From assembly GCF_003334765.1 (NCBI RefSeq), contig NZ_QOWT01000005.1: a DNA stretch of 64,000 bases; one strand, written 5' to 3'. The notes below the pieces were generated by a model. The model was not told the DNA's origin. It saw only the letters and a list, made by a program, of their open reading frames with translations, and made no database searches. Shown here piece after piece: positions 19,279 through 21,596 of this stretch. The DNA comes from Escherichia coli (lineage in GTDB: Bacteria; Pseudomonadota; Gammaproteobacteria; Enterobacterales; Enterobacteriaceae). Position 1 is the stretch's first letter, and every line of letters begins with the position of its first letter. Both the position numbers and the translations under genes were made by a program.

Positions 19279-20940
19279 TTACTCTGCTTTTTCTTCGACG
19301 GGAGTTGTTGAGGTTAAGGGTGAAGTCAATGCCGCCAGTGAGCCGCCTGAAACGCCAATTTCATTGAGCAAGGAGTCAATCAGCGGTGCCTGTGTGCGGT
19401 AAGAGAGAGCGGCTGATAATGCTTGTTCCGCCAGGTTTCCGCCCCCCACATTACCCGTGTTTGCATCACCCGCAGCGCCGCCACGATTCAGACCATCGAC
19501 CTGAATAATCTTGATACCGTCGATTGACTTCATCGGCTCAACGGATTTCTCTATTACCGCAGGCAGCGCCTGCAACAAGGCCAGTTTGAATTTAAGGCTG
19601 GTTTGTTCATCAGAAAGTACGTTGATAGCATCGTTCAGCGCACGTTGTGCTTCTGCTTCCGCCAGACCCTTTTTACGTGTAGCTTCGGCTAACTCAACGA
19701 TAGCCGCCGCCTGCATCTCTGCGGCTTCTTTTTCTGCTTTCGCCCGCACGGTCAGTTCAACCGCTTTGGTTTCTGCATCCTGCGCGGCAGCGATTAGGGC
19801 AACTTGTTTAGCACGATCGGCTTCGGCAGTCTGGCGAGTGGTTTCTACGTTTTGTTGGGCGCTTACCGCTTCTGCAAGTGCGAGATTAGCACGCGCTTCT
19901 GCCTGGGACTGTTGTTCCGATTTGGCGGCAATAGCGATCGATTTCGTCTGGTTAGCGATTTCGGTGACCTGCTGCTGTTCGATCTCTTTAATGCGAACTT
20001 CACGTTCAGCTTCAACCTTTCTTGAGCGGACGGCCTGTTCGCGGTCGATTTCTGTTTCCTGAATCTGTCGTTCAGCCAGAATTCGTGTCTGCTCTGCTTC
20101 ACGACGACGTTCAGCTTCAAAAGCCGCAATACGTGCATTCTGTTCGGCAGTACGGGTTTTAACCTGCTGCTCCTGCTCAAGCGTCATAAACGCTTCTTGC
20201 TGTTCAATCTCCAGCTTGCGCGATAGCGCATCGCGATTTTTTTCACGCACCGCAACTTCTACATCCTGTTCAACTTCGTTACGTTCGCGGCGACGGCGCT
20301 CTGTTTCCTGAGTCAGTTTGGTTAAACCTTCGGCGTCAAAGGCATTGTTCGGATTGAAATGTTCTTTCGAGGTCTGGTTAAAGTTGGTAAGTGAAACGCT
20401 CTCCAGTTCCAGACCGTTTTTCGACAGGTCTTCTGCCACTGTATTTTGCACCCCCTGCACAAAGTTCTCGCGGGTATCCTGTAACTCATGCATGGTCATT
20501 TGCGCAGCTGTTGCACGGAGGGCATCGACAAATTTATCTTCAACCAACATACGTAAGTCTTCAGGCGACAGGGTGCGTTGCCCCAGCGTCTGGGCAGCGG
20601 TGGCAATCCCTTCTACTGAAGGTTTTACCCGCACAAAGAAAGCGACTACTACATCGACGCGCATACGATCTTTCGTAATCAGGCTATCAATGGTTGAGCG
20701 GCTGACTTCCAGCTTCAGAGTATTCATATTGATGGGGATTATTTCATGAAAGATCGGCATCACGATTGCGCCACCGCTCATTACCACTTTTTGCCCACCT
20801 AAACCAGTACGAACAAAAGCTTGCTCTGCCGAAGCGCGACGATAGAGCCTGGCGAAAATAATTCCAATAATAAACAGAATGCATACGGCAATAATTGCGG
20901 TAAACATCCAGGAGGGCACAGAATTAACAATATCATCCAT
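19279..20940 (-). CDS. yqiK: SPFH/band-7 (flotillin-like) membrane protein with long coiled-coil
   Basis: 553-aa ORF; N-terminal TM helix, SPFH domain, then long E/A/Q/R-rich heptad-like region (EAEREVRIKEIEQQQ...AEAEAQRAL). Confidence 0.88.
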   Translation of the reverse strand: MDDIVNSVPSWMFTAIIAVCILFIIGIIFARLYRRASAEQAFVRTGLGGQKVVMSGGAIVMPIFHEIIPINMNTLKLEVSRSTIDSLITKDRMRVDVVVAFFVRVKPSVEGIATAAQTLGQRTLSPEDLRMLVEDKFVDALRATAAQMTMHELQDTRENFVQGVQNTVAEDLSKNGLELESVSLTNFNQTSKEHFNPNNAFDAEGLTKLTQETERRRRERNEVEQDVEVAVREKNRDALSRKLEIEQQEAFMTLEQEQQVKTRTAEQNARIAAFEAERRREAEQTRILAERQIQETEIDREQAVRSRKVEAEREVRIKEIEQQQVTEIANQTKSIAIAAKSEQQSQAEARANLALAEAVSAQQNVETTRQTAEADRAKQVALIAAAQDAETKAVELTVRAKAEKEAAEMQAAAIVELAEATRKKGLAEAEAQRALNDAINVLSDEQTSLKFKLALLQALPAVIEKSVEPMKSIDGIKIIQVDGLNRGGAAGDANTGNVGGGNLAEQALSAALSYRTQAPLIDSLLNEIGVSGGSLAALTSPLTSTTPVEEKAE

Positions 20941-20981
20941 TATTAAATTTCCTTTTGATTAATAAATTACAATATTTGGGG

Positions 20982-21596
20982 TCAGGGATTATTTTCCGCC
21001 AAATATCGCGTTGCAGAAAGTCGGCAAATAATTAACACTTTGTCTCCTTTAGTGAAAATTTTTCCTTCTTCAGGCTCCAGTAGTAAATAATGTATTTGGC
21101 CAAATTGATCGGTGAGTTTTCCTTCGCAGGGATTACCTGAAGTGGCTTGATGACCGGTAATTAACGCCATGCTACCAATATATTCTTCTTCTGTAATAGC
21201 TGAACTATGGTCGCGTGGAATCCAGGGCGCAACTATTTTACCGGTATAATGCACCGCAATAATCGTAAACAGTAAACTGACAGGAACCACGAACAGGTTC
21301 GACAGTGGTGATTGCCAGACCATGATGCAGGCATGCTGCAACAGGATGCCAATAAGACCAAAAAAACCAGCCAGTAAGCAGAGAACGACGAGAGCTGGCA
21401 ATCTTCCAATATTGAGATAATGAAGTGCCTGGCTAATATGACCTGTGGTTATAGAATCATAATGGTCAAGATGTGCATCAAGAGCACCGGAGAGCATGTG
21501 ACCGCAGATAAGCGCAAAAATTTCTAACAGGCCGATCAACAGTACAAAGGAAATAGCGAAAAGATAAGGGGTGTTATAGTCGGCGAATAAAATCAT
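20982..21596 (-). CDS. yqiJ: NfeD-like inner-membrane protein (partner of SPFH protein)
   Basis: 204-aa ORF, multiple TM helices plus C-terminal OB-fold-like region; immediately upstream of yqiK on same strand. Confidence 0.8.

Follow-up and report, generated by a model that had tools for sequence, protein, structure and literature searches.

The yqiJK locus

The stretch of DNA analyzed here, which we call the window, comprises 64,000 nucleotides of an Escherichia coli genome (contig NZ_QOWT01000005.1 of assembly GCF_003334765.1). Our subject is the gene pair yqiJ-yqiK, a two-gene membrane module that occupies window positions 19279-21596 and is read from the minus strand, yqiJ first and yqiK second. 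The list of open reading frames (ORFs) fixes the coordinates of both genes. The yqiJ coding sequence, placed by that list and by annotated homologues, lies at 20982..21596, starts with the ATG at 21596 and specifies 204 amino acids. That of yqiK lies at 19279..20940, begins at the ATG at 20940, ends with the stop codon at 19279-19281 and specifies 553 amino acids; both intervals include the stop codon. An earlier reading of the sequence (hereafter the original prediction) had proposed two minus-strand ORFs at these positions, with yqiJ directly upstream of yqiK, and the ORF list and annotated chromosomes bear this out. Unless stated otherwise, all features described below are also on the minus strand.

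The identity of the genes is directly observed. Across positions 18400-22200, the window is 99.9-100% identical in DNA sequence to complete annotated E. coli chromosomes, in which yqiK is annotated as a "flotillin family protein" and yqiJ as an "OB-fold-containing protein". The flanking genes there are hldE and the ibs toxin genes ibsE/ibsD next to yqiK, and glgS and the fimbrial genes yqiI/yqiH next to yqiJ. What the window holds at these positions is the E. coli yqiJK operon in its chromosomal setting. This pair is already known: Hinderhofer et al. 2009 (PMC2636767) defined YqiJ and YqiK as SPFH2a/NfeD2a. With a description dating from 2009 and an annotation in all E. coli genomes, the operon is no new finding, and close analogues already have solved structures.

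YqiK is a flotillin-family SPFH protein

The domain content of YqiK can be read directly from the protein. A transmembrane helix at about residues 10-32 (20845..20913), followed by the basic motif RLYRR, opens the protein; it lies within the single hydrophobic segment found by hydropathy near residues 4-36 and within a helix at residues 10-39 of the AlphaFold2 (AF2) model. An SPFH/Band_7 domain follows at residues 39-192 (20365..20826), where Pfam detects Band_7 (PF01145) at an E value of 2.1e-18 and where matches to SPFH structures also fall. Residues 193-405 (19726..20364) form long helices rich in E, A, Q and R. Over these 213 residues, the composition is 18% E, 17% A, 11% Q and 11% R, E/A/Q/R/K together make up 63%, and just two residues are Pro or Gly. 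Residues 406-530 (19351..19725) match the Pfam Flotillin domain (Flot, PF15975) at E 6.4e-41. Thus, the N-terminal transmembrane helix, SPFH/band-7 domain and very long E/A/Q/R-rich coiled coil of the original prediction are all recovered, by hydropathy, Pfam, composition and AF2 helices, respectively. The single hydrophobic helix and the RLYRR that follows it fit the predicted orientation of YqiK, with its N terminus out and its C terminus in; PMC10434171 likewise cites a prediction that the C terminus is cytoplasmic.

A sequence search of the Protein Data Bank (PDB) returned no match for YqiK, and none for YqiJ even at E<=10. Structure prediction was therefore needed for both proteins. The AF2 monomer model of YqiK, built from 12 homologues, has a mean predicted local distance difference test (pLDDT) score of 62 and a predicted template modeling (pTM) score of 0.29, and served only to rank folds. 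It contains an SPFH core and two long helices, at residues 203-351 (~150 residues) and 366-471 (~105 residues). When it was compared with the PDB by Foldseek, the top matches were flotillin-1/2 chains (9l3g and 9bq2; E ~1e-10, ~430-470 aligned columns, ~20% identity). Prohibitin, stomatin, HflK/C, major vault protein and QmcA followed at lower rank. Against the NCBIfam FloT equivalog model (NF058507), YqiK scores 86.3 bits, where the curated cut-off is 700. YqiK is thus a flotillin-family SPFH protein, not an equivalog of Bacillus subtilis FloT.

The long-helix region is also where YqiK varies. Its length ranges from 518 to 575 amino acids among E. coli and Salmonella, through in-frame deletions and duplications of -35, -30, -13, -9, +5, +6, +10, +13 and +16 residues. 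These are confined to the region encoded at window positions 19726-20364 (residues about 254-410). The changes look like slippage or duplication; no tandem repeats were found in the DNA that encodes the coiled coil in the window. If YqiK is a homo-oligomeric cage, such indels would alter the height of its wall and keep its register. The same stretch of DNA also holds an antisense ORF of 183 amino acids at 19511-20062 on the plus strand. Its product would be rich in Ser, Ala and Cys; the ORF most likely arises as a side effect of the E/A/Q/R-rich composition of the coding strand, and we did not take it as a gene.

YqiJ resembles NfeD in fold and architecture

The N-terminal part of YqiJ contains three hydrophobic segments, and its C-terminal domain is soluble. 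Pfam places YqiJ_N at residues 8-115 (1.4e-15) and YqiJ_OB at residues 139-198 (2.6e-14), so that both family domains are present and in order. The first of these is the membrane domain, with three transmembrane helices according to Pfam, hydropathy and the AF2 model (21252..21575); the second is the OB-fold domain (21003..21182). The protein is thus polytopic with a soluble C-terminal domain, as had been proposed. In the AF2 model (pLDDT 79.5), helices span residues 6-43, 53-63, 65-94 and 100-125, and a beta-barrel spans residues 143-202. This barrel is a five-stranded OB fold of the C-terminal NfeD type, and the three best Foldseek matches of the model are proteins of the same kind. The fold agrees with published data. 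Hinderhofer et al. 2009 assigned nuclear magnetic resonance (NMR) shifts for the YqiJ C terminus and placed YqiJ and YuaF together as the "NfeD2" partners of "SPFH2" flotillins. The fold of the C-terminal domain is therefore directly supported.

Sequence-family membership is a separate matter. PF01957, the Pfam model for NfeD, finds no match in YqiJ even at E<=10, whereas it matches the control protein YbbJ (in E. coli K-12, QmcA's NfeD partner) at 5.1e-12. Among 150 YqiJ homologues listed, every one carries PF21001 and/or PF07290, and none carries PF01957. A profile comparison by hhalign between a 38-sequence alignment of the YqiJ family and a YbbJ alignment that is shallow (effective number of sequences, Neff, 1.7) gave E 0.004 with a probability of 8.5%; the weak match pairs equivalent elements, the last transmembrane helix plus the barrel. 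NCBIfam has no match for YqiJ. The family defined by PF21001 and PF07290 is itself large, with 1,520 clusters at E<=1e-3 in an exhaustive profile search. YqiJ is thus "NfeD-like" by fold, architecture and operon position, not by sequence-family membership. The expectation that Pfam would detect both SPFH and NfeD domains in the pair was thus half right: Band_7 is present in YqiK, and NfeD is not found in YqiJ. The broader description as an NfeD-like/SPFH two-gene module stands, given the domains of YqiK, the conserved adjacency described below and the SPFH2a/NfeD2a assignment in PMC2636767. An idea that yqiJK belongs to a defense system was dropped because the PADLOC models gave zero matches to either protein.

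The pair is conserved and belongs to the core genome

We sampled one genome per species, which yielded 24 enterobacterial loci. In 24/24 of these species, the yqiK homologue starts 18-32 nucleotides after the yqiJ stop codon and has its own purine-rich Shine-Dalgarno (SD) sequence. The gene hldE lies downstream in ~20/24 loci, and glgS lies upstream in ~14/24. A more distant sample consisted of contigs for seven representatives of the YqiJ family, six of which have informative downstream sequence. In all six, the next gene after the yqiJ homologue encodes a Band_7+Flot protein 46-57% identical to YqiK, with an extra short Band_7 gene between the yqiJ and flotillin homologues at one locus. Co-occurrence across genomes, suggested earlier as a check on the pairing, is therefore clear at both scales (24/24 and 6/6), and YqiJ combines a membrane anchor with an SPFH gene as its operon partner.

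The distant sample also contained a recurrent neighbor. A PspA/IM30 gene stands immediately upstream of the yqiJ-flotillin pair in 3/7 of these loci (L028, 19-687; L030, 3306-3968; L035, 3314-3994), an association of PspA with the YqiJ/YuaF-flotillin pair that Ravi et al. 2024 (PMC11237479) described earlier. The E. coli yqiJK locus has no PspA/IM30 gene.

Within E. coli, yqiJ is present at >=80% coverage in 5,414/5,426 complete genomes, and the order hldE-yqiK-yqiJ-glgS is syntenic across Enterobacteriaceae. The yqiJK pair is core, not accessory. The original prediction had called its surroundings a context in which accessory functions tend to accumulate, a misleading hint for a pair that is itself core and syntenic; only the fimbrial block comes and goes. 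That block, yqiGHI beside glgS (22108-23172 onward), is the truly variable neighbor. IS1 splits the block in strains 300709 and C9, its usher is a pseudogene in a K-12-like laboratory strain, and O157:H7 and O145:H28 lack the whole block, so that glgS abuts ubiK/ribB there.

The two genes differ in other respects. Over the 24 species, median identity to the E. coli protein is 94% for YqiK (range 88-98% across several genera) and 71% for YqiJ, so that the two evolve at very different rates. The yqiJ gene is also more AT-rich than yqiK, with a GC fraction of 0.42 vs. 0.50 and a third-position (GC3) fraction of 0.39 vs. 0.47.

Natural alleles shorten or disrupt yqiJ and leave yqiK intact

The window itself carries a shortened yqiJ. 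In codon W205, one G->A substitution converts the reference TGG into a premature TGA stop at 20982..20984 (T at 20982 on the plus strand, where the reference has C), giving a YqiJ of 204 rather than 209 amino acids. The reference gene, which measures 630 nucleotides in records of laboratory and clinical strains, extends to 20967 and its product ends ...ENNPWPQIL. By alignment to this reference, codons for P-Q-I-L and the reference TAA stop persist at 20967..20981 as a 3' remnant that is untranslated here. The exact 61-mer of this allele occurs in 15/5,426 complete E. coli genomes, and strain C9 annotates the 204-residue YqiJ as a normal protein. O157:H7 carries a different mutation in the same codon, W205->TAG (locus L040, 2216-2830), the exact 61-mer of which is found in 310 complete genomes. 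In O145:H28, a 1-nucleotide deletion at yqiJ nucleotide 231 shifts the frame at codon 77 (locus L041, 2501-3129; 26 complete genomes) and splits the gene into ORFs of 120 and 118 amino acids. In the window and in the O157:H7 and O145:H28 representatives alike, yqiK is intact at 553 amino acids. Further lesions have been reported in the literature: an IS5 insertion at yqiJ nucleotide 562 in macrophage-evolved K-12, and a 13-bp yqiJ indel that makes the gene a pseudogene, without phenotype, in a Salmonella Enteritidis isolate.

What these alleles mean depends on what the tail does. All 20 enterobacterial YqiJ homologues compared keep W205 and the NPWPxxL tail unchanged; the motif loosens to NPxP in the wider family, and in the AF2 model the tail sits beyond the last barrel strand. 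The simplest and more likely reading is that loss of the five residues is nearly neutral. A single transition turns a Trp codon into either of two stop codons, which would account for the recurrence of stops at W205. Repeated independent lesions (two nonsense mutations at W205, the O145:H28 frameshift, the IS5 insertion and the Salmonella pseudogene), each with yqiK intact, could conceivably mean that YqiJ is more than a simple helper of YqiK. One could then imagine that the NPWPxxL tail or the whole of YqiJ restrains the flotillin, and that weakening this restraint is advantageous in host-associated lineages, an idea that we regard as very doubtful. It also follows from the disruption of yqiJ with yqiK intact that YqiK may do without an intact YqiJ. 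The tail-less alleles (window and O157:H7) and the frameshifted allele (O145:H28) are ready material for asking whether YqiK needs YqiJ.

Expression signals and flanking elements

An SD sequence, GGAG, can be read at 21603..21606, 6 nucleotides upstream of the yqiJ ATG. The yqiJ-yqiK spacer (20941..20981) measures 41 nucleotides here and 26 nucleotides in the reference allele, and it contains the yqiK SD sequence, AAGGA, at 20950-20954, 9 nucleotides upstream of the ATG. Upstream of the operon, in the glgS-yqiJ spacer, a candidate sigma-70 promoter, TTTAAA-15-TATATT, lies at 21757..21783. It is the unique exact match to a motif that PMC3946193 lists for the operon "yqiJK" together with an HNS mark. 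Scanning the minus strand upstream of yqiJ for consensus promoters, with a threshold of 9 of 12 matches, gave no hit, and this published weak motif is the sole promoter candidate for yqiJK that we can read from the DNA.

Downstream of that motif and 68 nucleotides upstream of the yqiJ ATG is a perfect 8+8 palindrome, CTGTGTTA-TTAT-TAACACAG, at 21664-21683 (core pattern matched at 21665-21682). It is found in E. coli proper only and is absent from the other 24 enterobacterial loci; 15/100 shuffled sequences yield a match with <=2 mismatches, so that the palindrome is not significant, and the putative yqiJ 5' leader folds no better than shuffles (z -1.58). For these three reasons, we dropped its reading as an operator or RNA hairpin.

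On the downstream side, a terminator-like hairpin with a T-run lies at 19236..19262, 17 nucleotides after the yqiK stop. A near-identical copy stands at 18861-18885, inside the adjoining ibs/sib repeat; the tandem duplication behind ibsD/sibD and ibsE/sibE therefore took in the yqiK terminator as well. An Rfam scan found two SIB_RNA copies (18530-18679 and 18905-19054) and no further element. The window also lacks one base at 19059 compared with a K-12-like laboratory strain; the site lies shortly beyond the second Sib RNA's 3' end and not within the ibsD frame. On the other flank, GC is 0.34 in the yqiJ-glgS spacer and 0.36-0.45 across the fimbrial block. The operon is thus bordered by ibs/sib repeats on one side and by an AT-rich glgS/fimbrial region (0.34-0.45) on the other, just as the original prediction had described.

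A proposed YqiK cage stabilized by YqiJ

Solved SPFH assemblies (HflK/C, flotillin-1/2, prohibitin, stomatin, erlin and QmcA-YbbJ) are closed cages that confine a patch of membrane. YqiK has the same building blocks, and the architecture of YqiJ is like that of YbbJ; from this we infer a YqiK dome with YqiJ bound to it. We propose that YqiK assembles into an SPFH cage on the cytoplasmic face of the inner membrane, stabilized by YqiJ and encoded by a stress-linked, poorly expressed operon, and we assign this reading a probability of roughly 0.7. Within it, YqiK would be anchored in the inner membrane by its one N-terminal helix, with the remainder of the protein in the cytoplasm, and would probably build a large homo-oligomeric ring or dome, as the solved assemblies do. 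The SPFH domains would lie on the membrane and the long helices would form the wall and cap, so that the dome could fence a membrane patch. YqiJ, with its three transmembrane helices, should present its C-terminal NfeD-type OB domain to the cytoplasm. It most likely binds YqiK through this domain and stabilizes the oligomer, as in YbbJ-QmcA and NfeD-FloA. In laboratory culture, yqiJK appears to be poorly expressed from its AT-rich, H-NS-bound promoter region. The frequent linkage to pspA-family genes in other phyla suggests a role in the response to membrane or envelope stress. The parts of this proposal that come from analogy are the assembly of the cage, the contact between YqiJ and YqiK, YqiJ topology and the pair's physiological role. 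The domain content, the operon conservation and the core-genome status on which it builds are matters of observation.

Several observations weigh against this proposal. Placement of YqiJ in the NfeD family is unsupported by the sequence methods, Pfam and hhalign. The YqiK model is of low confidence, and most of the weight of its fold matches is carried by the SPFH core and by helical states of the 3Di alphabet. A truncated or frameshifted yqiJ occurs in at least 351 complete genomes, with yqiK intact. In the literature, deletion of yqiK, and even a quadruple SPFH deletion, produced no growth, adhesion or biofilm phenotype, and YqiK expressed from its own promoter was barely detectable or undetectable; in PMC6788730, it was too scarce for detection in gradients. 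Overexpression of NarQ has been reported to raise yqiJK transcription, but the phenotype examined in that work was unaffected by the operon.

One alternative is that yqiJK is a protease-control module, holding or regulating a membrane protease such as FtsH, or its substrates, in the manner of HflK/C-FtsH or of archaeal PH1510/PH1511. We consider it unlikely. YqiJ has no protease domain, just three transmembrane helices and an OB barrel; YqiK is predicted to face the cytoplasm, whereas HflK/C faces the periplasm; no protease gene is linked to the pair in any locus examined; and the aminoglycoside and oxidative-stress phenotypes reported in the literature map to hflKC, not to yqiK.

The scarcity of YqiK and the missing phenotypes raise a different possibility, that E. 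coli yqiJK is a dispensable, decaying locus: a silenced remnant with no current role, whose intact frames reflect recent history only. Its very low expression and the lack of a deletion phenotype in the literature would fit, as would the H-NS mark on its promoter region and the recurrent disruption of yqiJ (W205 TGA, W205 TAG, the codon 77 frameshift, the laboratory IS5 insertion and the Salmonella pseudogene). Conservation speaks the other way. YqiK is 88-98% identical over 24 species, and the position and spacing of both genes are kept; near full-length yqiJ is present in 5,414/5,426 complete genomes; every YqiK length variant observed is in frame; and the two commonest yqiJ "disruptions" cost only five residues beyond the OB fold. 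Decay is thus rather improbable.

Most improbable of all is that the YqiJ membrane domain is a channel or carrier gated by YqiK, as stomatins gate ion channels: the domain is conserved and polytopic with invariant polar or charged residues (E25, Q87 and H116), and an archaeal stomatin/NfeD pair has been proposed in the literature to regulate channel opening, but its three transmembrane helices resemble no transporter or channel family in Pfam, NCBIfam or PDB searches, its structural matches are generic helical bundles, and overexpression or deletion of yqiJK left 3-hydroxypropionate import unchanged in published work.

Comparison with known systems

It is useful to set the proposed YqiJ-stabilized YqiK cage beside the systems that it resembles. 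The B. subtilis operon yuaF (NfeD2)-floT (yuaG) belongs to the same SPFH2/NfeD2 group of Hinderhofer et al. 2009 as yqiJK. YqiK nevertheless falls below the FloT equivalog cut-off (86 vs. 700 bits), and whereas B. subtilis flotillin mutants are pleiotropic, E. coli yqiK mutants have no robust phenotype.

A close analogue within E. coli is the SPFH-NfeD complex QmcA (YbbK)-YbbJ (PDB 8z5g; Tan et al. 2024), which has 26 heterodimers and protrudes into the cytoplasm. Its gene order is reversed relative to yqiJK, with qmcA first and overlapping ybbJ by 4 nucleotides. QmcA is of the short stomatin type (305 amino acids; 918-bp coding sequence) and lacks both the long flotillin helices and the Flot domain of YqiK, and YbbJ matches Pfam NfeD (5e-12), whereas YqiJ does not. 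In Staphylococcus aureus, the NfeD protein encoded in the same operon as the flotillin FloA binds FloA and stabilizes its oligomer, and a chaperone-like "clamp" that holds unfolded proteins has been reported for FloA-NfeD. Unlike YqiK, FloA is of the short flotillin type.

Among eukaryotic proteins, flotillin-1/flotillin-2 (9bq2 and 9l3g) provide the best matches to the YqiK model and have the Band_7 + Flot combination in common with it. However, they form hetero-oligomers and have no NfeD partner. Hairpins and lipid modification, not a transmembrane helix, hold eukaryotic flotillins on the membrane. Finally, HflK/HflC-FtsH is, like the cage proposed here, an SPFH assembly of the E. coli inner membrane, and HflK/HflC matches YqiK structurally over the SPFH core and the first helix. 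It differs in its periplasmic orientation and hetero-oligomeric make-up, in enclosing FtsH and in the lack of an nfeD-like neighbor.

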